Assembly: GCA_902622985.1 (NCBI GenBank)
Contig: CACNSH010000004.1
Span: forward strand, 66 to 64,065
DNA from: an uncultured Pelagibacteraceae bacterium
Lineage (GTDB): Bacteria > Pseudomonadota > Alphaproteobacteria > Pelagibacterales > AG-422-B15
DNA length: 64,000 nt
Direction of reading: 5' to 3'
Below, piece by piece: positions 1,874-19,657 of this stretch. The notes beneath the pieces were generated by a model, which had not been told where the DNA came from, did no database searches, and was given only the letters and a program-made list of their open reading frames with translations. Every line of letters starts with the position of its first letter. Within the stretch, counting starts at the first letter, position 1. Made by a program: the position numbers and the translations under genes.

Positions 1874-3391
1874 TCATTGATTTTTTGATTCTTCTATCAA
1901 CTTTATGATATTTTCGTGAACCACTGTTGCCGTATCTGGGCCCAAGGACACTACCTCGCCATATGTTTCCTCACTTTCTCCATAGATCCAAGGTGCGTCA
2001 TCATCCCACTCACTTTTTGGGATGATGTAACCGATTGAGTCATTTGCTAAATTCACCATCAAGTTTAGTTTGTCTGGAAATTGACTTCGTAAATTTGGAA
2101 CTTCTTGCGGCGTCATAACATAATCAGCTCCTTTAGGGTTTTCAATGCCGCCAATAGCAATTTCTGGATAAAGCTCTCCAGGAATTCCAGTAATAGATGC
2201 ATCTCCTATTTGTATAAATGCTACCTCACTTAGATAACGTATGAATGGTGGCCTCAGACTGAATTTAGTATCAGCATCAATTATACCGAGCAAAGTGCCG
2301 AATGAGAGCATCAAGTTTTCTATACCCAATTCTATTTCTTGTGATTGGATACTTAGTGATGGTTTAGGAGAAGTCTTAAAATCACCTGCTTGAAAAGCCT
2401 CTATAACACTGTTTGCAAGGCTATAACCATATGCGCGAGCTTTAGAATGACTCGGTTTAGTAATCATTTTTTCCAAAACAGGATCATAAATTGGATCGGT
2501 TGGTCCTGATGTCATCAAGCCTCCTATATTTCCTGTAAGCCATAGCGTGGTTCCGCCAAGACCAGGTTTAATTAACTTGTCATCATAATAAATTCCATGA
2601 CTGATACCTCTTCTTAAGTAGCCAGCAACATCAGAGGTTATGTCTAAGTTTTTATCCCATGCAAGCTCGACATGAATTCCGAAATTGATTAAAGAACCAA
2701 TAATTGAGCCGTCAGGGCGATTGAATAAAATTGCCCTTATATCATCATCTATAACGATAGGTTTTCGTTTATCTTTAATAGGGGTAAGTGGATTAGTCGG
2801 AATTAAAGCCAAACTCATTTCTGCAGCCTCTAAGTTATCGATCGCTATCTTTAATGTGCTTATAAAATCTTTTTTAAGCCGCTTCATATAGGCATCGTTG
2901 ATACCACTTTTTAAAAAACTCGGGCCCCAAAGACCTTGAGTATCTGGGCCTTCATGATTATGTGTTGCATGCACCATAATGTAATCTAAACCCCACTCAG
3001 CAGGAACATCCTCACGGACACTGAGTACAAATTTTCGCATTAACCCTATTGTATCAGCACTTATGATACCTATTCGTGTCTGGCCATCATCTATTACAAC
3101 AGCTACGGACATCAAATCATCTTTAATACCTTGGGCAGCTCGTTTATTTTGAAAACCTGCCATCCACACCGCATCAAATCGACCATTGCCATTTATATCA
3201 GTCCACTTATCAATATCTGCATCAAATTGAGCATCATTATTTATATCTTCCCATTCATCAATTAGATTAGGGGTGATCGGCATCTTAGCAAAGCCAACCT
3301 TAAATTCACTTGCATGAACTTGAGCAGTCATAATTATGCCAAACATCACAAGGGCATATAGAGTATTTTTTATATAACGGCAGTAAATCAT
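1874..3391 (-). CDS. secreted hydrolase with a neutral/alkaline-ceramidase-like N-terminal domain (putative)
   Basis: It has an N-terminal signal-like sequence (MTAQVHA/SE). GFAKMPITP, ISADTIGL and VHATHNHEGPD resemble the ceramidase-like family's GxAxxDITP and THTHSGP motifs, from recall. Confidence 0.4.
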   Translation of the reverse strand: MIYCRYIKNTLYALVMFGIIMTAQVHASEFKVGFAKMPITPNLIDEWEDINNDAQFDADIDKWTDINGNGRFDAVWMAGFQNKRAAQGIKDDLMSVAVVIDDGQTRIGIISADTIGLMRKFVLSVREDVPAEWGLDYIMVHATHNHEGPDTQGLWGPSFLKSGINDAYMKRLKKDFISTLKIAIDNLEAAEMSLALIPTNPLTPIKDKRKPIVIDDDIRAILFNRPDGSIIGSLINFGIHVELAWDKNLDITSDVAGYLRRGISHGIYYDDKLIKPGLGGTTLWLTGNIGGLMTSGPTDPIYDPVLEKMITKPSHSKARAYGYSLANSVIEAFQAGDFKTSPKPSLSIQSQEIELGIENLMLSFGTLLGIIDADTKFSLRPPFIRYLSEVAFIQIGDASITGIPGELYPEIAIGGIENPKGADYVMTPQEVPNLRSQFPDKLNLMVNLANDSIGYIIPKSEWDDDAPWIYGESEETYGEVVSLGPDTATVVHENIIKLIEESKNQ

Positions 3392-3529
3392 TCGTATCTA
3401 TCAACTATAACCGTCATTAGTAGATTTTAATATTTTTAATGAACTTATAAACTATTGTATCCAATAAATTTCTTTAAAACTTGTTGCAAAAGCAAATAAT
3501 TAAATCTTATTTTTTTAAGTGTAATTATG

Positions 3530-3607
3530 TGGCGGGAGTGACGGGACTCGAACCCGCGACCTCCTGCGTGACAGGCAGGCGCTCTAACCAGACTGAGCTA
3601 CACCCCC
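3530..3607 (-). tRNA. tRNA-Asp (anticodon GTC)
   Basis: The reverse complement folds as a cloverleaf. The acceptor is GGGGGTG/CACTCCC, the anticodon stem is CCTGC/GCAGG with loop CTGTCAC, the T arm is GCGGG-TTCGAGT-CCCGT, and CCA is encoded. Confidence 0.85.
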
Positions 3608-3640
3608 ACAGTTAAATTTTTTCCATCTCGTGGGAGGAAA

Positions 3641-3716
3641 TGGTGGGCGATGAGAGGTTCGAACTCCCGACATTCACGGTGTAAACGTGACGCTCTTCCA
3701 GCTGAGCTAATCGCCC
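3641..3716 (-). tRNA. tRNA-Val (anticodon TAC)
   Basis: The reverse complement is GGGCGATTAGCTCAGCTGGAAGAGCGTCACGTTTACACCGTGAATGTCGGGAGTTCGAACCTCTCATCGCCCACCA. The acceptor is GGGCGAT/ATCGCCC, the anticodon stem is TCACG/CGTGA with loop TTTACAC, and CCA is encoded. Confidence 0.85.
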
Positions 3717-3764
3717 GGAAAGACTGTTATATATCTATTTTAGTGAATATTCACAGATATTTAT

Positions 3765-3804
3765 AAAAAAAATCCGACCACGCTTTGTTTAAGAGTGATC
3801 GGAT
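3765..3804 (-). terminator. rho-independent terminator of hup
   Basis: On the minus-strand RNA there is a 10-bp stem (3772-3781 pairing with 3795-3804). The single plus-strand C.A mismatch becomes G.U on the minus strand. A U8 tract follows (A-run 3765-3772 on plus). The element lies 29 nt downstream of the hup stop. Confidence 0.7.
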
Positions 3805-3833
3805 TTTAAATAATTTAGTCAGCAGTTAAGAAA

Positions 3834-4127
3834 CTACATTCCTCCGCCGCCAGCATTATTAACAGCTTCTTTCAAACCTTTACCTGCAGTAAACTTAGGT
3901 CTAGTTGACTCAGGGATTTGAATAACCTCATTGGTACGTGGATTTCGCCCTTGAGATGCTTTTCTAATTGATGTTTTAAATGTGCCAAAGCCCACCAATC
4001 TTACTTCTCCTCTTGCTTTAAGAACATCAGTAATTTGGTCAAAAACTGCATTTACTGCCTTTTCTGAGTCAGATTTTTGCATACCTGTAACATCAGCTAC
4101 TTTTGCTATTAAGTCTTGTTTGTTCAT
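3834..4127 (-). CDS. hup: DNA-binding protein HU
   Basis: This is a canonical HU/IHF fold sequence (MNKQDLIAKVA, RLVGFGTFKTSIRKASQGRNPRTNEVIQIPESTRPKFTAGKGLKEAV). It has a short Gly-rich C-terminal tail. Confidence 0.9.
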   Translation of the reverse strand: MNKQDLIAKVADVTGMQKSDSEKAVNAVFDQITDVLKARGEVRLVGFGTFKTSIRKASQGRNPRTNEVIQIPESTRPKFTAGKGLKEAVNNAGGGGM

Positions 4128-4265
4128 AACCCCCCCCTTTTTTAGGAGTTTTTGATTCGTAATATAACTATGAGACCTGAACTACTATATATAGTCAAGA
4201 AAAAGCCCAAGAAAACTGCTAAAAATTAAAATTTAGGTATCTTCATTTAAGAAAATATAATTAAA

Positions 4266-6674
4266 TCAGTGTGTTATAGGATTATCCACATCTTGATCAG
4301 CATCATCTTCAGATATATCGCTAGAAGACTTAGGTGAATCCTCTTCGTCCCACTCAATAGGCAGGAGAGGCTTTGTCAAAGCTATTTTTAATACCTCATC
4401 AACATTATCGACAAATATAAGTTCCAGTCCTTCTTTTACATTATCTGGTATATCAGCCATGTCTTTTTCATTTTCCTTTGGAATTATAACAGTTTTTGTT
4501 CCGGCTCTGAGAGCGGCTAATAGTTTTTCTTTTAAACCACCAATCCCAAGTGCCTTTCCACGAAGTGTCACTTCACCTGTCATAGCAATATCTTTTCTAA
4601 CCGGTATACCTGTCAACACTGAAACTATGGATGTAACCATACCCAGGCCAGCGGATGGACCATCTTTTGGAATTGCACCTTCTGGTACATGAATATGAAT
4701 ATCACGTATCGGAAAAATAGTTGGTTTTATTCCAAACTCAATACATCTTGAGCGAACATAAGATTTTGCGGCCTGAATAGACTCTTTCATTACATCACCT
4801 AATTTACCAGTAATAGTCATGCGGCCTTTTCCAGGCATTATAACCGACTCTATTGGCAATATATCGCCACCAACTTCTGTCCAAGCAAGTCCTGTAACTA
4901 TCCCAACCTGGTCGTCATTATCAATTTCGCCAAATTTAAATTTTCTAACACCCGCAAACTCATGCAGGTTATCTTCGTTTATTGTTAGTGATCCAATGTC
5001 ACCTGCTACAATTTTTTTAACTGTTTTACGAGCAAGGTTAGCAAGTTCTCTTTCTAAACTCCTTACACCTGCTTCCCTAGTATAATATCTTATTAATCCA
5101 GTTATCGCACTATCGTCCAGTATAAGCTCACCACTCTTTAAGCCATGCTTCTCTAACATCTGTGGTGCTAAATGTTGTTTTACAATTTCTACTTTTTCAT
5201 CTTCAGTGTAGCCTGCAATTCTAATAATTTCCATTCTATCTAAAAGTGCAGGAGGCATTCTTAATGTATTAGCAGTTGTAATAAACATTGTATCAGACAA
5301 GTCATAATCAACTTCTAGATAGTGATCGTTAAATGAATTATTTTGCTCTGGATCAAGAACTTCCAATAAAGCTGACGAAGGATCTCCTCTGTAATCAGCT
5401 CCTAACTTATCAATTTCGTCTAATAGAAATAATGGATTAGATGATCCTGCTTTCTTCATCATCTGAAGAACCTTTCCAGGCAGAGATCCTATATAAGTTC
5501 TTCTGTGCCCTCTAATTTCAGCTTCATCTCTAACTCCTCCAAGTGACATTCTTACAAATTTTCTTCCCGTAGCTCTTGCAATCGACTTACCCAATGAAGT
5601 TTTACCCACACCTGGAGCTCCAACTAAACATAAAATTGGACCCTTCATTTTCTTTATTCTTTGCTGAACAGCCAAATATTCTAGTATTCTCTCTTTAACT
5701 TTTTCAAGACCATAGTGATCTTCGTTAAGAACACTCTCTGCGAATTTGATATCTTTTTTAACTTTTGTCTTTTTACCCCATGGTATTGTTAATATCCAAT
5801 CTAAATAATTTCTTATAACGCTGGATTCAGCAGACATTGGGCTCATTGATTTCAACTTTTTAATTTCTGAATAGCATTTTTCTTTTGCTTCTTTTGAGAG
5901 CTTAGTGTTCTCAATTTTCTCCTCATACTCCTGAATATCATCTTTGCCATCATCGCCTTCTCCAAGCTCCTTTTGGATGGCTTTCATTTGCTCATTTAGA
6001 TAATATTCCCTTTGAGTTTTCTCCATTTGATTTTTTACACGACCTCTAATCTTTTTTTCAACTTGCATAACATCGAGTTCCGCTTGAATAAAATTCATTA
6101 TCTTTTCAAATCTCTCGGTGAGGTCGATTGCTTCCAATATCTCTTGTTTATCAGACAACTTAATTGATAAATGTGATGCAATTGTGTCACTCAACTTAGC
6201 TAAATCATCAATTTCGTTTATTGTCCCAAGTACTTCAGGAGGAATTTTTTTATTTAAATTTACGTATTTATCAAATAGATCCGTTATTGATTTAGATAAT
6301 GCTCTCAATTTTTTATCAGAGCTATCATTGTTCTCATCAATAAGATCAATGTTGGAAACCAGAAAATCCTCATTATCGGTAAACATGTTAATTGAGGCTC
6401 TTTGAAGACCCTCAACAAGTACTTTAACAGTACCGTCAGGTAATTTTAATAATTGTAATACATTTGCTATTGTTCCAAAGTCAAAAAGGTCATCTTTTTT
6501 CGGGTCATCCACTGAAGCACTTTTTTGAGTGATCAGCATAATGCGTTTATCGCCAGCCATGACTTTCTCAAGCGCCTTTACTGATTTGTCTCTACCAACA
6601 AACAATGGGACTACCATATGAGGGAAGACAACTATATCTCTTAGTGGCAAGACCGGGATACTATTTTCAATCAT
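4266..6674 (-). CDS. lon: ATP-dependent Lon protease
   Basis: It has a LON N-domain (PVLPLRDIVVFPHMVVPLFVGR), Walker A GAPGVGKTS, a catalytic Ser in PKDGPSAG, and the Lys region GLKEKLLAA. The C-terminal tail is acidic. Confidence 0.95.
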   Translation of the reverse strand: MIENSIPVLPLRDIVVFPHMVVPLFVGRDKSVKALEKVMAGDKRIMLITQKSASVDDPKKDDLFDFGTIANVLQLLKLPDGTVKVLVEGLQRASINMFTDNEDFLVSNIDLIDENNDSSDKKLRALSKSITDLFDKYVNLNKKIPPEVLGTINEIDDLAKLSDTIASHLSIKLSDKQEILEAIDLTERFEKIMNFIQAELDVMQVEKKIRGRVKNQMEKTQREYYLNEQMKAIQKELGEGDDGKDDIQEYEEKIENTKLSKEAKEKCYSEIKKLKSMSPMSAESSVIRNYLDWILTIPWGKKTKVKKDIKFAESVLNEDHYGLEKVKERILEYLAVQQRIKKMKGPILCLVGAPGVGKTSLGKSIARATGRKFVRMSLGGVRDEAEIRGHRRTYIGSLPGKVLQMMKKAGSSNPLFLLDEIDKLGADYRGDPSSALLEVLDPEQNNSFNDHYLEVDYDLSDTMFITTANTLRMPPALLDRMEIIRIAGYTEDEKVEIVKQHLAPQMLEKHGLKSGELILDDSAITGLIRYYTREAGVRSLERELANLARKTVKKIVAGDIGSLTINEDNLHEFAGVRKFKFGEIDNDDQVGIVTGLAWTEVGGDILPIESVIMPGKGRMTITGKLGDVMKESIQAAKSYVRSRCIEFGIKPTIFPIRDIHIHVPEGAIPKDGPSAGLGMVTSIVSVLTGIPVRKDIAMTGEVTLRGKALGIGGLKEKLLAALRAGTKTVIIPKENEKDMADIPDNVKEGLELIFVDNVDEVLKIALTKPLLPIEWDEEDSPKSSSDISEDDADQDVDNPITH

Positions 6675-10252: not shown

Positions 10253-10337
10253 TGGTGCGGATAGAGGGACTCGAACCCCCATGAGTTGCCTCACTGGTAC
10301 CTAAAACCAGCGTGTCTACCAATTCCACCATATCCGC
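10253..10337 (-). tRNA. tRNA-Leu (anticodon TAG), class II with a long variable arm
   Basis: The reverse complement is GCGGATATGGTGGAATTGGTAGACACGCTGGTTTTAGGTACCAGTGAGGCAACTCATGGGGGTTCGAGTCCCTCTATCCGCACCA. The anticodon stem is CTGGT/ACCAG with loop TTTAGGT. CCA is encoded. Confidence 0.9.
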
Positions 10338-10387
10338 GATTAATAGAAAATGCAAAATAGACTATTTTTTAGATGTTTACAGTAAAA
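10312..10387. repeat. island direct repeat, left copy (tRNA-Leu nt 1-26 plus 50 bp of upstream flank)
   Basis: It is identical over 76 nt to 19546-19621, compared base by base. Identity breaks at 10311/19545 and at 10388/19622. Confidence 0.9.
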
Positions 10388-10479
10388 ATTTAATCTAGCT
10401 AAGGTTTTGGATTAAGGGGATTTTTGATGAATAATGTCAATATAGTGACAATGAAGTGAGCTTACTTTGAAGTTAGAAA

Positions 10480-11208
10480 TCACTCCGCATTTTCAATTAT
10501 TTGTTTAGTTAGTTCGTCATAATTATTTAAAATTAAGGATAAATTTCTTATAACTACACTTGTTTCATCGTTTGGATTTTCAGTGCTTCCGGAATTCGAA
10601 AGCCAATTAAAACTTCCCACTACGTAGTATTCTTTGTCACACATCAAAACTTTTGAATGATTTGGAATTTGAGCAATATACATTTTTCCATAAGCTCTAT
10701 TTTTGTTTGAATGTTCTTGTAAACTTCTAAGTATTTCTAATCCTTTAATATCAGAAATACGCATAGAATTGCTTTTTGAATATTCATATCCAAAACAAAT
10801 ATAAATATTTACTCCCCTATTAATTGCAGCCCTGATTGATTTTATTAATTTTTCATCTAACGCAAAACTCGTTGCCCAGCCAGATAATATAATCAAATCA
10901 TGCTTAGCTTTTCTAATAGTTTTCATTAAAAATTCTCTATGTTTTGCAGGACCTTTTACTTGTGTAAAGCCCAATTTACTATTTATAAACTTTCCTATTA
11001 CATTTGAATTGGATGTAGATAAGTATCCAATTATTGAAGAAACAATTAAAGTTGTGAGTTGAAGTTGTTGAAGAGACCCGTAAAGAGCAACATAAGTCAG
11101 AACAAGCCATAGTCCTGTTGCAATATAGCCAATTTTATCTGAAGTTCGCCAGGCAATAAAAACTGTAACAAAAATTGTAATTTGAAATAATAAAACAGCT
11201 ATACTCAT
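10480..11208 (-). CDS. membrane-anchored single-HKD phospholipase D superfamily protein (Nuc-like nuclease or phospholipase)
   Basis: It has a complete HxK(x)4D(x)6GSxN motif: H184-S-K186-VLMC-D191-KEYYVV-G198-S-F-N201. Three N-terminal hydrophobic segments lie at about residues 3-20, 26-44 and 51-66, followed by a K/R-rich linker. Confidence 0.7.
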   Translation of the reverse strand: MSIAVLLFQITIFVTVFIAWRTSDKIGYIATGLWLVLTYVALYGSLQQLQLTTLIVSSIIGYLSTSNSNVIGKFINSKLGFTQVKGPAKHREFLMKTIRKAKHDLIILSGWATSFALDEKLIKSIRAAINRGVNIYICFGYEYSKSNSMRISDIKGLEILRSLQEHSNKNRAYGKMYIAQIPNHSKVLMCDKEYYVVGSFNWLSNSGSTENPNDETSVVIRNLSLILNNYDELTKQIIENAE

Positions 11209-11237
11209 TTAATTATTTTCATATGTAAGTAATCAAT

Positions 11238-11579
11238 TTATTTTTTATCAATTAGATTATCTAACTTAGATCTAAGCTTTTCTTTTTTTCTAAACTTATC
11301 AAATCCATCATTTAATTCACTATCTGTTTCAAAAGTTGTAGGTCTTTTTAAGTAGAATACAAAAAATATTATCGCAAGTAATACTAAAATATTTTTTATA
11401 ATAAAAGAAATACCAAGATAATCTAAATTATTAGATTTTTCAGCCCACGTTAGATATTCATTGTGTAAATAAATAACTATTCCTACAAATATAAAAAAAT
11501 AAAAAATTCTTCTTATTCTTGGCTTAATCCAAATAAAGATTTTTGTTGCAGCTACAATTTTAATGAATTGATAAAACAC
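11238..11579 (-). CDS. hypothetical small membrane protein (2-3 TM helices with a charged C-terminal tail; holin-like topology)
   Basis: The hydrophobic segments are FYFFIFVGIVIYL and ISFIIKNILVLLAIIFFVFYL. The C-terminus is DKFRKKEKLRSKLDNLIDKK. It lies 2 nt downstream of the preceding ORF and 29 nt upstream of the PLD gene. I recognise no family. Confidence 0.45.
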   Translation of the reverse strand: MFYQFIKIVAATKIFIWIKPRIRRIFYFFIFVGIVIYLHNEYLTWAEKSNNLDYLGISFIIKNILVLLAIIFFVFYLKRPTTFETDSELNDGFDKFRKKEKLRSKLDNLIDKK

Positions 11580-11581
11580 GC

Positions 11582-11851
11582 CTAGTTAATGAACCATCCC
11601 AATCCCAAAGGAAGAAGGGCAAGTTTTAATCCAGTCATTTTATGCTTGCTTCTCACTTCTTTTTCTTTTTCAGCAATTATCTCTTCAATTTCACTATCAC
11701 TGTAATCAGACCATTTTTTTTGTCTGATCCTAAGCTCATTCTTTGTTTCTTTAATGGCTTTATCTCTATAATATTTATTTACACGATCTAATGATTTCTT
11801 TGATAGTGAGCCAATTTTATCAAAGACATCTTTTTTATTAATATCTTTCAT
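11582..11851 (-). CDS. hypothetical small protein: charged helical N-terminal part with a C-terminal hydrophobic anchor
   Basis: It is 89 aa, highly charged (KETKNELRIRQKKWSDYSDSEIEEIIAEKEKEVRSKHK), and ends in LKLALLPLGLGWFIN. It is the first gene of the three-gene cassette. I recognise no family. Confidence 0.4.
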   Translation of the reverse strand: MKDINKKDVFDKIGSLSKKSLDRVNKYYRDKAIKETKNELRIRQKKWSDYSDSEIEEIIAEKEKEVRSKHKMTGLKLALLPLGLGWFIN

Positions 11852-11937
11852 AGCTTGATAATAGCTTATTCGGGTAACTATTATAATGATAAAGTGTCAA
11901 TATAGTGTCAATGCACTTCGCATAACTTATTAAGAAA

Positions 11938-12660
11938 TCAAGAAGGTCGTGCCCATGTAGCATAGGAAAGCGGTGATTCATTGAGCTTTTGCCTTATGCT
12001 TTTCCACTTTGGCAAAACACCGTCAAGTAACTTATAAAACTTTTTGTTATGTCTAGTCTCAATAAAGTGAATTAGCTCGTGTACAATAACAAACTCTAGC
12101 GCATCTCTATCTTTGTGCACTAACTCGGTGTTGAGCCTAATAGATTTAGATGATGGAGAACAACTTCCCCATTTGGTTTTCATTCGTTGAATATAGATCT
12201 TCTGGACACTTAGATTAAACTGACACTCCCACTGTGCTATAATCTTAGTTGCTTTATGCCGCAACTGATCTCGATACCAACGCTCTAATATTTGTTTCTT
12301 TACCTGGGTGCTTGCATTGTCACACGCCCGCAGGATTAAATGCTTCCCTTTTAGTTCAACATGATCACCTCCACCAGAATTTTTAATTTTTAGAAGATAC
12401 CGCTGACCCCAAACATTGATGCTTTCCCTATTTATCAACTCTCGCTGCGACTCGCGTGCTTGATTAGCCAGCCGATGATGATGACGCTTTATCCATTCAA
12501 GTTTTGTCAGAGCAAATGCTTTAACAGTTTGTATGTCGACATCTAAGGGTGCAGAGACTTTCACCATGCCTACTGGCGGGTGAACAGTTAGGTGAATATT
12601 TTTAATATCTTTTTTAGTGACCTCAACATCAAAGCCACCAATTGTATGACGCTCAGCCAT
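11938..12660 (-). CDS. YgjP/DUF45-type (M48-like) zinc metallopeptidase associated with type I R-M
   Basis: WGSCSPSSKSIRLNTELV and VIVHELIHFIETRHNKKFYKLL (HExxH) match the DUF45/COG1451 signature. Its ATG overlaps the hsdR stop by 1 nt (TAATG). Confidence 0.75.
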   Translation of the reverse strand: MAERHTIGGFDVEVTKKDIKNIHLTVHPPVGMVKVSAPLDVDIQTVKAFALTKLEWIKRHHHRLANQARESQRELINRESINVWGQRYLLKIKNSGGGDHVELKGKHLILRACDNASTQVKKQILERWYRDQLRHKATKIIAQWECQFNLSVQKIYIQRMKTKWGSCSPSSKSIRLNTELVHKDRDALEFVIVHELIHFIETRHNKKFYKLLDGVLPKWKSIRQKLNESPLSYATWARPS

Positions 12661-15600
12661 TAATATCCTACCTGCTGTTCAATAATAGCAAACAATCTTT
12701 CAACTTCAGCCTTATTTTCTACAATTGCATAAATGGCTTGCTTAACACGTTGTTCTTTAGGTCCATTCCCACGCCAGCCATCTGGAATATTTTCAAGTAG
12801 ATGTTCATGAAGGGCAATCACCTTCTCTTCATTTTCACCCATATTATTGTAAAGAGCACGAAGCTCAGGCGTGTTGATTGATGCAGGCATTTCTTCACCT
12901 CTGCCGTCTTGTACCTGTTTGGCTAACTCAGCAATCTGTGCAAGATAAGCCTCATAGTCTAACGCTTGAGACTTTCTTTGTTGGATGATTTGGTCAAGCA
13001 AGTTAGACATCTTATCAAAAAAGGCAGGGTCATTTAACTGACTCTTTAAAAGCACGCTACGTACATTATTTTCGATTATTTCTGATATACCTTCTTTTGA
13101 TTTCACCGACTTCGCTAAGCGTTCGTTGATTGCATTAGCAGCGCCACTTTTCACAATCAGTTCAACTAGTGACATATTGTCAAAGTCGGAGATAGGTCTT
13201 GGTTCATCAGCTTCAATATATGTGTCTATCAAACGCCTCATATCAGCTTCATAGGCTTTAAGATCAAGATATTCACCGCTTGCATTTTTCACAATATCCG
13301 AAGCATCTTTGAAATGTTCAATGCGAGACTTGATGTGCCGCCTCTGATGATCATTATAGCCTGCCGCTTCCATATCATTGGCAATATTCGCATAAGCACG
13401 AACAAGAGCGGCAGTTAGCTGATACAATGCTTGACGCTTTTGCGCAGTGGTTTCCAAATCGTCCGTGACTTCTGAATTGCCACAGAAATATCGAATATAG
13501 TTAAGTGTTTCTTTTGGTGGCTCAACAAGCTCACACAGCTCTTCAATAGCTTCTATTGCAATATCTAATCGGTTGCGACAAAGTTCTAACCTGTCATTAA
13601 CTGTAATCTCTGGGCGAGGTTGCCCATCCTCATGGTCAAGCTCTTCAGTGTAAACCGCCATAGCGTTCTCAACCTTTCTAAACAGGTCTTTATAATCAAC
13701 GATATAACCGTAATCTTTATCTTCACCATCTAACCTGTTGGTTCGGCAGATAGCCTGAAACAACCCATGATCCTGCATCTTCTTATCGATATATAGATAT
13801 GTACAGCTTGGTGCATCAAAGCCTGTCAGCAATTTATCAACTACAATCAAAAGCTTCATGTTCCAGGGTTCTTTAATAAAAAGCCGCTTTGCTTCATCCT
13901 CATAAGTTTCTGTCTTGGTCTTGCCCGGCTTGGTATATACATCTTTGAGCATTTCTTCATAGATACGAAAAATAGTTTCCTTGTCTGTTTCAGATGTCGC
14001 TCCTGTATCTTCAAGCGAGATGTCACTGCCATGAGGATTATAAGATGTTACAACTGCACATCTATTATTCAACTCTGTCTGATTGAAAAGCTGGTAATAG
14101 CTACAAGCCTCATAAATTGAACCTGCAACAAGAATTGCATTTCCTCTATTTGTGGAAAGACGTGGTTTTGTATTGAAGTCAAAGATGATATCATCAATCA
14201 CCCTACCCATTCGTGACTTTGAGCTTAGAACGGTTTGCATAGTGCCCCATTGTTTTTTAAGAGCTGCCTTTTGCCAATCATTTAGGCCTCTAGTCTTTGC
14301 CTCAAACCACGCATCAATCTTATCCTGGGAGCCAAGTGTTTGGTCTACATCACGCGCTTCATAAGACAGGTCAAGCACCACCCCGTCATCAACAGCCTCG
14401 GCAAAGAGATAACGATGAATATAGCCCCCAAAGACTTGCTTCGTTGTTTCCTTATCAGCCTTCAACAGCGGTGTACCTGTGAAGCCAATGAAGGTCGCTT
14501 CAGGTAATTGAGCTTTCATCAAACGGTGTAACTTACCTGATTGAGTGCGGTGGCACTCATCAACAAGAACAAAGATGTCACCATATACAGAAACATTATA
14601 TTCTCTCAACTGTTTGATATAGGACTCAAAATCTTCAACACCATGCTTGCCAAATTTATGAATAAGAGAGCACATCAAGCGTGGGCTTGTCTGACTCAGT
14701 TTAGATAAGAGATCACGGCCACTTATTGCACGTTCGATCTGCTCACCGGCAGCTGCGAAGATACCTTCAATTTGTTTATCGAGTTCATCTCTATCTGTAA
14801 TAATAGCTACACGCGCATCGGGAATATTTTCCAAAATCCATTTTGCAAGTAGCACCATAACGATGGATTTGCCACTGCCTTGGGCATGCCAGATAATACC
14901 ACTCTCATGTCGTCTTATGTATGCCTGTGCTGCCTTCATGCCAAAATATTGATGTACTCTTGGTAGCTTTTTTCTGCCACCATCAAACAACACAAAGTCA
15001 TATAGTATTTCAAGCAGACGTGATTTCTCAAACATCTTACAGAGATATTTATCCAGTTTAAAGCCTTCATCCTGCTCCTCATCTTCTTTCCAAGTCAGGA
15101 AGAAAGGCTCAGGCGTACCAATTGTGCCATAGCGCAAACCCTCTGCATCACTGCCAGCCATCACTAACTGAACCGTTGGATAAAACCATTCATTAAAACG
15201 GGGTTGTTGATTAGAAATGCTCTGACGGATACCTTCAGTGATTGCAATTTTACTGCGCTTTAACTCTAGAACTCCGATTGCAATACCGTTGATATAGAAA
15301 ATAACATCAGGTCTGCGTTCCAAATTACCGCGAAGTGTAACTTCTTCTGCAAGTGCAAACTGATTTAAGTCAGAGTTTTGCCAGTCAATAAGGTGTATAG
15401 TTTCAGTTGACTTGCTGGCATCAACTTTTACCTGCACACCGTAGCGGAGCAAATTATAGGTGTCCTGATTTCGCTCATAGAGAGTCTTGCTGTTGTCTGC
15501 TGCGGCACGCTTTAACAGGTCAATTGCTCTGGATATTTGCGCATGGCTATAGCCACGTGAGACCAGGTTCTTAGTGAGTAACCCCTCTTCAATATTACTA

Positions 15601-15710
15601 TTATTCTCACGGTCACGCCAATCTCCCAGATAGTCGTAACTCATCTGACTTCTAAACAGATCAATCAGCCTTTCCTGAGTCACGATTTCCGGTTCTGATA
15701 AGCGGCTCAT
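12660..15710 (-). CDS. hsdR: type I restriction endonuclease subunit R
   Basis: It has a PD-(D/E)xK nuclease motif (RPDVIFY...GVLELK), helicase motif I AQGSGKS and motif II VLVDECHRTQSG. It is 1016 aa with a long helical C-terminal domain. It overlaps hsdS by 4 nt. Confidence 0.9.
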   Translation of the reverse strand: MSRLSEPEIVTQERLIDLFRSQMSYDYLGDWRDRENNSNIEEGLLTKNLVSRGYSHAQISRAIDLLKRAAADNSKTLYERNQDTYNLLRYGVQVKVDASKSTETIHLIDWQNSDLNQFALAEEVTLRGNLERRPDVIFYINGIAIGVLELKRSKIAITEGIRQSISNQQPRFNEWFYPTVQLVMAGSDAEGLRYGTIGTPEPFFLTWKEDEEQDEGFKLDKYLCKMFEKSRLLEILYDFVLFDGGRKKLPRVHQYFGMKAAQAYIRRHESGIIWHAQGSGKSIVMVLLAKWILENIPDARVAIITDRDELDKQIEGIFAAAGEQIERAISGRDLLSKLSQTSPRLMCSLIHKFGKHGVEDFESYIKQLREYNVSVYGDIFVLVDECHRTQSGKLHRLMKAQLPEATFIGFTGTPLLKADKETTKQVFGGYIHRYLFAEAVDDGVVLDLSYEARDVDQTLGSQDKIDAWFEAKTRGLNDWQKAALKKQWGTMQTVLSSKSRMGRVIDDIIFDFNTKPRLSTNRGNAILVAGSIYEACSYYQLFNQTELNNRCAVVTSYNPHGSDISLEDTGATSETDKETIFRIYEEMLKDVYTKPGKTKTETYEDEAKRLFIKEPWNMKLLIVVDKLLTGFDAPSCTYLYIDKKMQDHGLFQAICRTNRLDGEDKDYGYIVDYKDLFRKVENAMAVYTEELDHEDGQPRPEITVNDRLELCRNRLDIAIEAIEELCELVEPPKETLNYIRYFCGNSEVTDDLETTAQKRQALYQLTAALVRAYANIANDMEAAGYNDHQRRHIKSRIEHFKDASDIVKNASGEYLDLKAYEADMRRLIDTYIEADEPRPISDFDNMSLVELIVKSGAANAINERLAKSVKSKEGISEIIENNVRSVLLKSQLNDPAFFDKMSNLLDQIIQQRKSQALDYEAYLAQIAELAKQVQDGRGEEMPASINTPELRALYNNMGENEEKVIALHEHLLENIPDGWRGNGPKEQRVKQAIYAIVENKAEVERLFAIIEQQVGY

Positions 15711-16879
15711 ATCAAGCGCGTCCTCCCTGTCAGCAACTCCTGCATCATACCCGCTTTAACTTTTTTGGCTTTGTTGAGCTGTAAGTTAAGCAATGTTATT
15801 TCAGATTCAGCATCATCTAATTTGGAAACAATCTCTTTTTGTTCAGACACGCTTGGGATTGGTAGGGTCAAATCAGCAATCATTTCACGTCGAACAGAGT
15901 CAACTGAAGACTTAGCTGTCATGGACATAATCCGTTCGTAGAATCTAGATTTAAATTGCCAATAAAAATATCGGCCAACTACATCACTCCTAAAATCAGA
16001 TAATATATAAACTCGCTGATGAGCGTCGAATTTTCCATTCATGTAGTGGAAAATTTTACCTGTTCCTACGCCGTCACCTGCAGTCAAGACGGCTTCTTTA
16101 TCGTAAGCAAAGGAGTCAATTTTCTCAATTTTTTGAGACCTAACAAAAAATGGGTAAGCACCATCTGGCTTATTGTCTTGCGTATTTCTCCCCCCAGTTT
16201 CAATTGAAACAAGTTCATCAATTCTGGTGAATCTATCATTATTTTCAGAGCTTATAAGTAGCGTATTTGCCAATGAGTTTTGAACTTTTAATTTCTTCTC
16301 AATCAATTTTTCTAACGAGGTAATCAGCGCATCAACATCACTCAACGCCTCAGCAATCGCTTGCTGTTCTTGTTTTGAGATTGGATATAGAAGTTCTATA
16401 CTTTTGAGGTTTGAGCTATTTACATGAACAATAGCGTCTCCCTGTGCAGCTTTTTCTTTCTGCTTTCTAACCATTTCAGAGTTAAGAGCATATCCCAAAA
16501 AGATTGGGTCTATATCTTTAGGAGAGAAAATAACTATGTCACCACCTGCATAAGCTTCAAATTTATCAACAAAAGCTGCTGACTTACCAATTTCCTCTTT
16601 CTTTTCCCCTGAACCTGCAAATAGTTGATCTCCAAACTTCAAAAGAACTGAGTCTTTTGAAATATCCGAAGATATAAATGATTTATAATATTGAATAATA
16701 TTATGATGGTCTGTGTAAAGTTCACCGTATCTTACACATGGAATCTCTCCAGAATTCGCTATAGATTTAGTAATACCTTTTCCCTTGCTGAACCTACCAA
16801 GTTTTTCTAAGGTTGATATAGTCCATTTACGCGGTACTTTATAATTTTTATCAAGGTCAAATAATAAAGTAACTACCAT
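15707..16879 (-). CDS. hsdS: type I restriction-modification specificity subunit S (two dissimilar target-recognition domains)
   Basis: Two variable domains are separated by conserved helical spacers (EQQAIAEALSDVDALITSLEKLIEKK and EQKEIVSKLDDAESEITLLNLQLNKAKKVKAGMMQELLTGR). It sits between hsdM and hsdR and overlaps both. Confidence 0.85.
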   Translation of the reverse strand: MVVTLLFDLDKNYKVPRKWTISTLEKLGRFSKGKGITKSIANSGEIPCVRYGELYTDHHNIIQYYKSFISSDISKDSVLLKFGDQLFAGSGEKKEEIGKSAAFVDKFEAYAGGDIVIFSPKDIDPIFLGYALNSEMVRKQKEKAAQGDAIVHVNSSNLKSIELLYPISKQEQQAIAEALSDVDALITSLEKLIEKKLKVQNSLANTLLISSENNDRFTRIDELVSIETGGRNTQDNKPDGAYPFFVRSQKIEKIDSFAYDKEAVLTAGDGVGTGKIFHYMNGKFDAHQRVYILSDFRSDVVGRYFYWQFKSRFYERIMSMTAKSSVDSVRREMIADLTLPIPSVSEQKEIVSKLDDAESEITLLNLQLNKAKKVKAGMMQELLTGRTRLI

Positions 16880-19281
16880 GAGAACCTCATGGCTTTAAGA
16901 TGTTGTTCCACTTTATCAGAAAGTTCTGCTATCTGCTTTTGAATTTGAGGTAGCGGTGAATCGTAACGTTCTGCCAACTCCTTTAATCGTCTAGTAAGTT
17001 TTTGCAATATTGATTGATTAGCCTCATTAATCATAACCTCTAGGCTTGCCATCCATTTATTGTTAACAACAATCTCTTTGACTTCTTCTTCTGTCAGGTT
17101 TGGATAATGTTCTAATACTGCCTTGTCCAGTGCTTCGTCCTGTTCTTTCACCTGCTTCTTAATGGCTGCAATTGCTTTGGTTTTATTTGCCCATTCATCT
17201 AAGACTGACAGCTCATCTGCAAATTCAACATTGCCTTTAATTTCTTTGATGCGAGCATTTACTTCCTTTTTATTCACCTTATCAAAATCAGCAAAGACCC
17301 CATCATCACCTGACTGCTCTTCAACCATTTCTGCAAGCGTTGCCTCAGCTGATTCAAGCTCAGCCAGCTGAGTGTCAAGTACGGTTTGTTTATCGGCAAA
17401 GGCATAAGCAACTAGAAGGGATTTTGGCAATAGATCACAGGCCCAGCCGGCATCCTTCTCTTGTCCTTTTTTCTTGCCTTGTTTGATAGTTTCAATCACA
17501 CGGTAAGGCTCTGCCTTCCATCCCTCTACAGCGATATGATAGAAATCATCCGATAATACTTCTTCCCAATAATTCATCATCAATTGGTAAATATCATAAG
17601 GGTCAATCAGCGGCTGTTTGCTGTAATGGTCAAGCAATCCCTTTGCAAGTTGAGCAATTTCTTGCTTTGGCTTAATGCCAATCTGTAACGCCATTAGGTA
17701 ATCAACCACTTCAGTTTGCCACGCCTGATAATGCGAAGCTGCCTTTGCTTCAAAGGCTTTATAATCAGCATGATTCGAAATCGTTTCGCTTATCGCATTC
17801 GTAGCAACATTAAAGGATAAATATCCTTCTCGCATTGGCGACAGCAGCACCTTGCGAAGTTTGGTAAACTCATGCCAATAGTCACTCAGTGCGTCAATAT
17901 CTGCTTGCGGTATTCCGCCATTGAGATGGGCATCAATATCCTGAATATCCTCACTCTTATTTATAGAAATATAGCGCGGTAAATTAAGATTGTGATCTTG
18001 CTCAAGAATTTCAGTCATTGGCACAAAACGCGCATAGCCAATCATATCTATGCCTTGCTTATATGTGTCCACAATGCGATGCACATCCATTTCACGCAGG
18101 CGGTTCTTTGGTCCATCTTTCATAAAGCCATCGCTTGCATTGATCATAAAAATTCCATCACGTGTGGCTGCCTCTGACTTATCCAGCACAATGATACAGG
18201 CAGGAATACCCGTTCCGTAAAAAAGGTTAGCTGGTAGGCCTATAATTGCCTTTATATAGCCACGCTTTAAGATATTTTTTCGGATTGTCTCTTCTGAATT
18301 TCCACGAAACAGTACACCATGAGGTAAAATGACTGCAGCTTTACCATTCGATTTCAGTGAGCGGATGATATGCAGCATGTACGCATAGTCACCCTGTTTG
18401 TTTGGCGGTATACCATAATGTTGAAATCGCTCATGGACATCTTGGTCAGGTGTAAGTCCATTGCTCCAACGCTTGTCACTAAATGGTGGGTTGGCGACCA
18501 CATAATCAAATGTTTTAAGACTGCCATGTTCAATAAATTTTGGATCAGATAACGTATTGCCTTGCATGATTTGTGAGGTCGGATTGTCATGCAGAATCAT
18601 ATTCATCTGCGCCAAGGAAGCTGTGGCACTTTCTTGCTCTTGTCCATAAAGGGTAACATTACCAGTTGCTTCATCACTTACTTTCAACAACAAAGAGCCA
18701 GACCCGCAAGTTGGGTCATAGACGGTCGTGCTGCTAGAGGTCTCATCCTGACCAATTCCAAGGACTAATGCCATGATGCGGCTAACTTCAGATGGAGTAT
18801 AGAACTGTCCTTTGCTCTTACCGCTCTCAGAAGCAAAGTGGCGCATTAAATATTCATACGCATCACCAAGAATATCATCTCCATCTGCGCGGTTGTGGGA
18901 GAAATCTAACTCTTTCTTTTCAAATACAGCAATTAGATTGGTCAATCTGTCCTGCATTTCTTTTCCTGAACCAAGTTTCTGGCTGTCATTAAAATCAGGG
19001 AGGTTACCTAAATCATTGGCATCTTGAAGGGGGCCCACAATGCGCTTATTAATTTGGTCTCCAATATCAGAGGTTCCTTTTAGTTTTACCAAATCAGCAA
19101 AACTTGCTCCCTCTGGTACAGTTATTTCCGCATAAGGCTGACCAGCATATTTATCAGAGACATATTTAATAAAGAGTAGGACAAGCACATAATCCTTATA
19201 CGCAGCAGGTTCGATGCCTCCGCGCAGCTCATCACACGCTTTCCAAATAGATGAATATAGTTCTGATTTCTTAATTGCCAT
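16873..19281 (-). CDS. hsdM: type I restriction-modification DNA methyltransferase subunit M (long 802-aa form)
   Basis: The N-terminus reads SELYSSIWKACDELRGG...YKDYVLVLLFIKYVSDKY. The SAM motif is VYDPTCGSGSLL and the catalytic motif is NPPF (VVANPPFSDKRW). There is a helical/coiled-coil C-terminal extension of about 300 aa. Confidence 0.9.
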   Translation of the reverse strand: MAIKKSELYSSIWKACDELRGGIEPAAYKDYVLVLLFIKYVSDKYAGQPYAEITVPEGASFADLVKLKGTSDIGDQINKRIVGPLQDANDLGNLPDFNDSQKLGSGKEMQDRLTNLIAVFEKKELDFSHNRADGDDILGDAYEYLMRHFASESGKSKGQFYTPSEVSRIMALVLGIGQDETSSSTTVYDPTCGSGSLLLKVSDEATGNVTLYGQEQESATASLAQMNMILHDNPTSQIMQGNTLSDPKFIEHGSLKTFDYVVANPPFSDKRWSNGLTPDQDVHERFQHYGIPPNKQGDYAYMLHIIRSLKSNGKAAVILPHGVLFRGNSEETIRKNILKRGYIKAIIGLPANLFYGTGIPACIIVLDKSEAATRDGIFMINASDGFMKDGPKNRLREMDVHRIVDTYKQGIDMIGYARFVPMTEILEQDHNLNLPRYISINKSEDIQDIDAHLNGGIPQADIDALSDYWHEFTKLRKVLLSPMREGYLSFNVATNAISETISNHADYKAFEAKAASHYQAWQTEVVDYLMALQIGIKPKQEIAQLAKGLLDHYSKQPLIDPYDIYQLMMNYWEEVLSDDFYHIAVEGWKAEPYRVIETIKQGKKKGQEKDAGWACDLLPKSLLVAYAFADKQTVLDTQLAELESAEATLAEMVEEQSGDDGVFADFDKVNKKEVNARIKEIKGNVEFADELSVLDEWANKTKAIAAIKKQVKEQDEALDKAVLEHYPNLTEEEVKEIVVNNKWMASLEVMINEANQSILQKLTRRLKELAERYDSPLPQIQKQIAELSDKVEQHLKAMRFSW

Positions 19282-19545: not shown

Positions 19546-19571
19546 GTGTCTACCAATTCCACCATATCCGC
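19546..19571 (-). pseudogene. orphan 5' fragment (nt 1-26) of tRNA-Leu(TAG)
   Basis: These 26 nt are identical to the acceptor-5' strand plus D arm of the intact tRNA at 10312-10337. No anticodon, T arm or 3' acceptor strand follows. Confidence 0.85.
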
Positions 19572-19621
19572 GATTAATAGAAAATGCAAAATAGACTATT
19601 TTTTAGATGTTTACAGTAAAA
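19546..19621. repeat. island direct repeat, right copy
   Basis: It is identical to 10312-10387. It is followed by core sequence leading into the 2-hydroxyacid dehydrogenase gene. Confidence 0.9.
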
Positions 19622-19657
19622 TATTACAATTTGATGCTATAATTTTGACCGTTAATT

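Follow-up and report, generated by a model that had tools for sequence, protein, structure and literature searches.

What does a small membrane cassette lodged beside a transfer RNA (tRNA) gene do for its marine host? The window considered here is a 64,000-nucleotide (nt) stretch of contig CACNSH010000004.1 from an uncultured Pelagibacteraceae bacterium. The cassette consists of three minus-strand genes: gene A (11582-11851), which encodes an 89-amino-acid (aa) protein with a charged helix and a C-terminal hydrophobic anchor; gene B (11238-11579), which has a GTG start and encodes a 113-aa inner-membrane protein; and gene C (10480-11208), which encodes a 242-aa protein with three transmembrane (TM) helices and a phospholipase D (PLD) domain bearing a single HKD motif. 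An earlier note on this DNA, made from the letters of the sequence, had proposed that the three form one sensor/pore/effector system. The reading that we prefer is that the PLD protein acts, much as in Shield, as a nuclease effector tethered to the membrane, whose accessory partners can be exchanged and whose genes are carried in a tRNA-linked flexible island. We put its probability at roughly 0.45, which makes it a tentative answer.

How might such a cassette work? It is an accessory unit of ~1.7 kilobases (kb) with its own predicted promoter, part of a cassette array inserted into the 5' half of tRNA-Leu(UAG), and it brings together two modules. The first is a putative membrane-anchored, single-HKD PLD of the Nuc/Zucchini/Mokosh-MkoB type. 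Single-HKD PLD enzymes are established homodimers, and by analogy with Nuc and Zucchini two copies of the PLD would pair to form one active site. The three N-terminal TM helices would hold that site at the cytoplasmic face of the inner membrane. There the enzyme would act as a nuclease, and its most plausible targets are foreign DNA or RNA that enters or replicates at the membrane. The second module is the A-B pair, independent and widespread, with a variable third partner. In the lineage of the window both modules would be co-transcribed and co-inherited, with the PLD as the effector and A-B as at most an optional membrane partner or regulator; in sister lineages that place is taken by a small acidic protein termed D, by an HNH nuclease or by nothing. 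The PLD would be directed against phages or other mobile DNA.

What kind of PLD does gene C encode? Its single HKD motif reads N183-H184-S-K186-x4-D191-x6-G198-S199-F-N201. In an alignment of 16 homologues H184, K186, D191, S199 and N201 are invariant and G198 is kept in at least 90%, which bears out the complete HxK(x)4D(x)6GSxN motif first read from the sequence. The protein belongs to the PLD superfamily (Pfam PF13091 PLDc_2, E 1.7e-12, 47.7 bits against a cut-off of 27). Its matches to the PADLOC profiles MkoC (E 4.2e-25, profile positions 984-1121 of 1136) and MkoB (E 2.7e-23), at 81-86 bits, are far stronger than those to DISARM DrmC (E 2.6e-7 in PADLOC; 28 bits against a cut-off of 133 in NCBIfam) and to the NCBIfam models ClsB (E 1e-3, 18 bits against 281) and NucT (24 bits against 297). 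The AlphaFold2 model (predicted local distance difference test score, pLDDT, 87.8) places N-terminal helices at residues 3-22, 24-41 and 44-63, followed by the PLD fold, in agreement with the three hydrophobic segments noticed earlier. A Foldseek search with this model returns Nuc (1byr, E 2.7e-9, target TM-score 0.73) and NucT (6ehi, target TM-score 0.69) near the top, with poxvirus F13 also among the top matches, and Zucchini/PLD6 (4ggj, E 1.2e-7), PLD1/2 and PssA lower down. A profile search with the PLD family against PDB sequences gave weak, motif-level matches only (E of at least 0.007). The contrast between the MkoC/MkoB and ClsB scores, together with the fold matches to Nuc, NucT and Zucchini, supports the original view of a nuclease- or defence-type PLD. 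Because loop 1 and the linker that follows the third TM helix are rich in lysine and arginine, as in relatives, the protein probably adopts an N-out/C-in topology with its catalytic domain toward the cytoplasm, the orientation that had been suggested from the linker.

Could the enzyme act on lipid instead? It might be a homodimeric, membrane-bound enzyme like cardiolipin synthase, or a phospholipase, that remodels the inner-membrane phospholipids of an oligotroph, and A and B would be its small partners in the membrane. Two single-HKD subunits, once paired, would mimic a two-HKD enzyme, and ClsA has a comparable layout of N-terminal TM helices and a cytoplasmic catalytic domain. The Foldseek matches also include PLD1/2, bacterial PLDs and E. 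coli PssA, at query TM-scores of 0.45-0.49, and MitoPLD/Zucchini is deposited as a cardiolipin hydrolase. However, short single-HKD proteins are mostly nucleases, and the ClsB score is a small fraction of its cut-off while those for MkoB and MkoC are several times higher. Moreover, the PLD gene is an accessory gene of patchy distribution on a mobile cassette, not a housekeeping gene, and the partners of its relatives are HNH and HNH-WYL nucleases. On balance, a lipid enzyme is decidedly unlikely. The housekeeping cardiolipin and phosphatidylserine synthases (ClsA/B/C, PssA) were likewise rejected as candidates, given one HKD motif rather than two and a ClsB score below the equivalog cut-off.

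How widespread is this architecture? A profile search of 1.84 billion cluster representatives found 3,014 relatives at E<=1e-3 and 167 at E<=1e-30, the family size of ~3,000 being a count of clusters at 50% identity. Architecture was counted on the best 147 of the 3,014 relatives: 120 of these have at least one hydrophobic segment N-terminal of the PLD domain, 130 carry the full HKD motif and 5 have two HKD motifs, with a median length of 274 aa. Judged from these predicted proteins, TM-anchored single-HKD PLDs are a large family without a name. Nearly all members examined in their genomic context sit beside tRNA genes. The closest relatives in related loci (given L numbers here) differ in their partners: PLDs at 74% (L059/L060) and 63% (L061) identity are followed by protein D and have no A-B, and one at 58% (L001) stands alone beside tRNA-Lys, without a small partner. 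More distant relatives, at ~30% identity, adjoin tRNA genes in eight loci from Pelagibacteraceae or unclassified Alphaproteobacteria; their partners, described below for L004 and L007-L010, vary by locus, and A-B is absent from all. The label "SAR11-like" is used for the window because PLD relatives are found in Pelagibacteraceae genomes.

The preferred reading draws in part on the gene neighbourhoods of family members. An HNH endonuclease gene lies directly downstream of the TM-PLD gene in two loci (L007 10840-11367 and L008 10837-11361), an HNH+WYL gene lies directly upstream of the PLD gene in a third (L003 1183-2031), and a conserved 282-aa membrane protein is coupled to the TM-PLD in two more (L009 8893-9741 and L010 3267-4115). 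These HNH, HNH+WYL and 282-aa partners may represent further TM-PLD "subtypes". A C5 DNA methylase gene is found near the TM-PLD of L004, and transposases near the PLD relatives P0014 and P0016; for the PLD of the window, the type I restriction-modification (R-M) neighbours were counted as part of this context. Protein D is a small acidic family of 58-66 aa (L059 1195-1395, L060 736-936, L061 792-968) whose gene lies directly downstream of, or overlaps, the PLD gene in L059 and L061. In L019, a TM protein of 166 aa encoded immediately before A-B contains two copies of the D domain (5578-6078; BLAST E 6e-20). Protein D may be an inhibitor or a partner of the PLD; searches of Pfam, NCBIfam, PADLOC and PHROGs with it gave sub-threshold noise only.

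Are A, B and C genuine genes, and are they expressed together? Because each has homologues and the ratio of nonsynonymous to synonymous substitution (dN/dS) is low, they are real genes under purifying selection rather than chance open reading frames (ORFs). Across relatives from 98% down to 45% identity the ratio is 0.04-0.47 overall, with 0.04-0.16 for gene A, 0.22-0.47 for gene B and 0.10-0.21 for gene C. The ORF list gives gaps of 2 nt between A and B and 29 nt between B and C, so the tight packing on the minus strand described earlier is confirmed. A predicted sigma-70-type promoter lies upstream (11883-11911, minus strand; TTGACA, 17-nt spacer, CATTAT) with 10 of 12 consensus matches. It is a consensus match only, and promoter-like sites in the scanned region are not above the shuffle mean. 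Because this consensus promoter lies upstream and a scan of the trio region found no terminator-like site between the genes, A, B and C likely form a single operon with a common predicted promoter. The nearest match of the window is the uncultured marine single-cell genome GCA_902574445.1. Compared with the copy in L018 (9540-9881), an otherwise near-identical single-cell genome, gene B shows ~5 amino-acid changes and 0 synonymous changes, numbers too small to interpret.

What can be said of the two small proteins? Neither A nor B has a significant match in Pfam, NCBIfam, PADLOC or PHROGs, and PADLOC recognises no named system in the trio, so the impression that this architecture had no name was correct. 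In protein B, a basic, amphipathic N-terminus leads into two TM helices and a charged C-terminal tail, with a predicted N-in/C-in topology; its periplasmic loop (Y37, H39, E41, W45) and a motif in its cytoplasmic tail (DGFDKFRxKxKL) are conserved. The earlier note had given B two or three TM helices and a holin-like topology. Two TM helices and the charged tail hold up, but B has no holin match in Pfam, NCBIfam or PHROGs and no fold match, its model finding nothing in the PDB at E<1 by Foldseek; the ORFs and family scans also reveal no endolysin gene in the island. "Holin-like" is a resemblance of topology only.

Do the three genes form an indispensable unit? Exactly A, B and the PLD make up the cassette in ~12 contigs and one single-cell genome, all near-identical and hence one lineage. 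L003 retains the trio in permuted order (HNH/WYL-PLD-A-B), at 71% identity for the PLD, 65% for A and 54% for B, with the same cassette ends. The intact trio is limited to the lineage of the window and this one diverged, permuted relative. A and B, for their part, are paired wherever the contig is long enough to show both. They occur without the PLD in ~25 loci, of which ~20 have the order A-B-A'. The A' protein has 140 aa and is similar to A in its C-terminal half; the same four family libraries gave sub-threshold noise for it. In L062, B (70% identity) has a different TM protein as its third gene, and in L019 A-B is preceded by the D-D TM protein and an MkoA/MkoC-like helicase. Since A-B occurs without the PLD and PLD relatives occur without A-B, the two are separable modules joined in one lineage.

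These patterns bear directly on the possibility that the cassette is an abortive-infection system for which all three proteins are required, in which A/B would provide a sensor and a holin-like pore and the PLD would be an effector released or activated on infection. The tight packing, the common predicted promoter and a cassette of exactly three genes would all be expected, as would the retention of all three in L003 despite a change of gene order and 54-71% identity. Protein D connects the neighbourhoods of the PLD and of A-B, and B has the N-in/C-in, two-TM topology and charged tail of a class II holin. However, A-B lacks the PLD in the ~25 loci described above, usually with an A-like gene in third place instead; L062 has yet another third gene; PLD relatives at 58-74% identity, and all those at ~30%, lack A-B; and B belongs to no holin family. 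An obligate trio is therefore rather unlikely, and the suggestion of the earlier note that the genes make up one three-gene sensor/pore/effector system is not supported: to a large extent the genes occur independently, an outcome that the note itself had named as refuting it, with the trio found in one lineage and one permuted variant. The PLD-D, D-A-B and A-B-PLD links hint at a common functional neighbourhood, with coupling unproven by these links.

Might the small partners instead restrain a toxin? The PLD could be a genotoxic nuclease held by its anchor and by small partners (A-B or D), in an addiction or toxin-immunity module that stabilises the cassette rather than acting against phages. 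Small acidic proteins encoded directly after or overlapping the PLD gene, as in L059 and L061, would suit this role, and cassettes without an integrase but with long direct repeats would be easily lost by recombination. In addition, Shield appears toxic without its membrane anchor (PMC10270631). Nevertheless, the PLD of L001 has no small partner, many A-B-A' operons have no candidate toxin enzyme, and the trio has no match to a toxin-antitoxin family. We regard an addiction module as improbable.

How does a membrane-tethered PLD effector compare with known systems? Experiments on Shield showed that ShdA, a cytoplasmic nuclease tethered by a TM anchor, suffices by itself and that variable partners modulate it (PMC10270631). 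What Shield and the window cassette have in common is a core effector with an N-terminal TM anchor and a cytoplasmic nuclease domain, which lies in defence or R-M neighbourhoods and comes either by itself or with small accessory genes that vary and so define subtypes. The differences are that the nuclease fold of ShdA is RmuC, not PLD, without sequence relationship to gene C, that Shield is reported only in Pseudomonas, and that its accessory proteins belong to other families than A and B. Neither Pfam nor PADLOC finds RmuC, the ShdA domain, in the trio, and the resemblance to Shield is architectural only.

Mokosh comprises the helicase MkoA and the PLD protein MkoB, fused as MkoC in type II. 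Its PLD domain is the closest sequence relative of gene C, and the A-B relative in L019 adjoins an MkoA/MkoC-like helicase. In gene C, however, a three-TM anchor replaces the N-terminal region of MkoB, and the match covers the last ~140 profile positions. No superfamily 1 (SF1; Upf1-like) helicase of the MkoA type is fused to or adjacent in the window cassette, where the neighbours of the trio are a YgjP-like peptidase and HsdR/S/M; an MkoA-like helicase appears only in the unrelated locus L019. Because it has no helicase, the window cassette is not Mokosh. The L019 helicase (2213-5533) has 1,106 aa and matches MkoC at E 1.6e-66 and MkoA at E 1.2e-56, with a DUF559/MTES_1575 nuclease domain in place of the PLD. 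DISARM, which combines the PLD protein DrmC with the helicase DrmA, DrmB (DUF1998) and a methylase, was rejected too: the island has no drmA or drmB genes, and DrmC scores below its cut-off.

Nuc (pKM101) and NucT (H. pylori) are single-HKD nucleases and the best fold matches of gene C. They are secreted or periplasmic proteins of ~155-180 aa without a TM bundle, whereas gene C has a predicted cytoplasmic topology. Membership of the Nuc/NucT group was rejected on the NucT score, which is below the equivalog cut-off, and on the three-TM N-terminus and predicted cytoplasmic domain. Zucchini/PLD6 (MitoPLD) is a membrane-tethered dimeric nuclease with an N-terminal TM anchor. It shares a single-HKD PLD domain and a structural match (4ggj) with gene C; it differs in being eukaryotic, in the mitochondrial outer membrane, with one TM helix rather than three, ~17% sequence identity, the helicase MOV10L1 as partner and a role in piRNA biogenesis. 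By this analogy, gene C would be a bacterial version of the TM-anchored PLD6 layout. The Mokosh PLD has itself been linked to PLD6/Zucchini (bioRxiv 10.1101/2022.12.12.520048). Compared with these systems, the combination of a PLD nuclease effector, a membrane-anchored stand-alone architecture and novel small partners would be new.

Several points weigh against the Shield-like reading. First, the PLD fold alone cannot separate nucleases from lipid enzymes, and a membrane tether also suits a lipid substrate. Second, the similarity to MkoB/MkoC is at the level of the domain only, and the substrate of the Mokosh PLD itself is not established. Third, defence genes are common cargo of SAR11 tRNA islands, so the evidence from neighbourhood is confounded by location. 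Fourth, A and B have no recognisable domains, and their role is a guess. Fifth, the association of A-B with the PLD is essentially one ancestral cassette, and thus one evolutionary event. The support for a putative defence role of the trio consists of sequence and genomic context.

There is also a more far-reaching version of the preferred reading, which we consider unlikely. Here, A-B with an interchangeable A', D or TM-PLD would be a new modular membrane defence family of SAR11-type bacteria, always at the tRNA- or tmRNA-proximal edge of integrase-free arrays, in which the small proteins would sense envelope perturbation by phage and license a Zucchini-like, MkoB-type PLD to cut entering nucleic acid. 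If so, bacteria would have, in this PLD, a stand-alone protein that corresponds to the TM-anchored architecture of PLD6.

What would be gained if the Shield-like reading were true? SAR11 is the most abundant bacterial clade of the ocean and lives under heavy phage pressure; to our knowledge, it has few recognised defence systems. With the ~3,000-cluster family of TM-anchored single-HKD PLDs, a defence principle like that of Shield would be added that is built on another nuclease fold, and prokaryotes would be seen to have their own proteins with the TM-anchored layout of Zucchini/PLD6. The A-B(-A') genes, with the junctions described below, would offer a way into the question of how cassettes without an integrase come to be stacked beside tRNA genes when genomes are streamlined. 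If the reading were false, gene C would encode no more than a minor lipid enzyme of accessory status, and A and B would stay orphan membrane proteins. The parts most worth following up are the TM-PLD family, A-B(-A') at tRNA-proximal island edges and the integrase-free cassette array.

How is the island built? In related contigs, the chromosomal site lies between a 2-hydroxyacid dehydrogenase gene and tRNA-Leu-tig-clpP-clpX-lon. In the window, the intact tRNA-Leu(UAG) gene (10253-10337, minus strand) forms the right edge of a 9.2-kb island bounded by an 81-nt direct repeat, 98% identical between copies, which consists of the first 26 nt of tRNA-Leu(UAG) and 55 nt upstream. The right copy (10312-10392, minus strand) is the 5' part of the tRNA gene with its upstream region, and the left copy (19546-19626, minus strand) is the outer island edge. 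Thus, the earlier description of the island as tRNA-flanked holds on one side, where the tRNA gene is intact; the other side has only the 26-nt tRNA copy and the 55 nt.

A second direct repeat, or box, with the core TTGACAcTATAtTGACA, flanks exactly A, B and C. Its left copy lies at 11895-11924 (core TTGACACTATATTGACA) and its right copy at 10435-10464 (TTGTCACTATATTGACA); this 17-nt box repeat and the duplicated 5' tRNA-Leu pieces bound the ~1.7-kb trio cassette. The box consists of two hexamers 11 nt apart whose half-sites co-vary from one cassette to another (TTGACA/TTGACA, CTGACA/CTGACA, GTGACA/GTGACA, TTGATA/TTGATA). The left box is upstream of gene A in all window-type loci (L018, L021-L031) and upstream of the HNH/WYL gene in L003; other copies are found at L021 10814-10830 and 13983-13999, L003 887-903 and L001 4332-4348. 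The first half of the left box is the -35 hexamer of the predicted promoter. A simple promoter was rejected as an explanation of the box, since it fits the left copy only, the right copy being without a -10 element. In other A-B lineages, gene A is preceded by hexamer-N5-hexamer repeats of different sequence and then by TATAAT. Along the direction of the genes, each unit runs from a partial tRNA-Leu (tRNA') through a ~68-nt spacer, a box, the cargo and a second box to a ~50-nt spacer, the tRNA promoter and the next tRNA-Leu copy.

A type I R-M operon, hsdM-hsdS-hsdR, with an overlapping gene for a YgjP-like metallopeptidase (11938-19281, minus strand), forms a separate cassette directly upstream of the trio, where the earlier note had placed an R-M operon. 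The R-M element is inserted into the tRNA' copy; in the window and in L018 its junction is at tRNA nucleotide 26 and abuts the left box, and the trio junction is at nucleotide 49. The GC content is 40-42% in the R-M element, 28-30% in the trio and ~33% in the surrounding genome. In L021-L029 the trio occupies the same site and the R-M genes are absent. Because it has its own tRNA junction and a higher GC content, the R-M operon with its YgjP-like peptidase is a separate insertion, and probably the later one.

How could such cassettes be gained or lost? No recombinase gene is present among ORFs of at least 80 aa between 10253 and 19660, which sets the array apart from integrase-borne tRNA islands and from integrons. 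Islands documented in SAR11 are linked to tRNA genes, carry a repeat of part of the tRNA and lack an integrase (PMC11796062). The island in the window resembles them in its tRNA linkage, partial tRNA repeat and lack of a recombinase within. It differs in that its repeats consist of the 5' tRNA, promoter and upstream box, from 81 to ~165 nt, and in that window-type cassettes occur in tandem stacks. Repeats of this length would allow Campbell-type insertion, and also excision, by homologous recombination.

A position beside a tRNA gene, with partial tRNA repeats on the flanks, would equally fit a prophage or satellite remnant, a lysis or superinfection-exclusion cassette left at its attachment site after decay. 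A-B-A' loci begin just past tRNA or tmRNA pieces, and the small membrane proteins are of holin- or spanin-like size. This is nonetheless the weakest rival, and a highly improbable one, ranked low because searches of IMG/VR, GenBank phages and BFVD gave no specific match: IMG/VR scans with the B and PLD profiles came up empty, tblastn with the PLD against GenBank phages found no match, and BFVD yielded generic PLD folds only. PHROGs likewise gave nothing significant, no endolysin or structural gene lies nearby, and purifying selection acts on all three genes in the host. A search of plasmids found distant PLD and Mokosh-II-like matches only, at 26-34% identity.

The A-B-A' operon, with its three small membrane proteins, is widespread among metagenome loci (L035, L037-L046, L049-L051, L053-L055). 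It often starts 50-150 nt past the 3' end of tRNA-Met or past other tRNA or transfer-messenger RNA (tmRNA) pieces. Of the RNA pieces ahead of A-B-A', Rfam confirms only a single truncated tRNA and a single tmRNA piece, the other tRNA fragments being a reading by eye. R-M-like or T5orf172 genes often follow; in L038 these are an Eco57I-type methylase and a T5orf172/ResIII protein. Just upstream of A-B-A' in L038 ends an ORF (1-105) that reads ...AGHSDPRMLLRIY..., which we take to resemble the C-terminal motif of a tyrosine recombinase. Pfam gives no match for this 34-aa fragment and so does not confirm a possible integrase C-terminus at this position.

Finally, two window-type loci, L021 and L024, carry two cassettes in tandem, with the trio first and a five-gene cassette second. 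The second cassette (10856-13977 in L021) encodes two unknown proteins, a trypsin-like protease, a 107-aa protein and an SNase-like nuclease, and in both loci it is bounded by its own CTGACA-type boxes.

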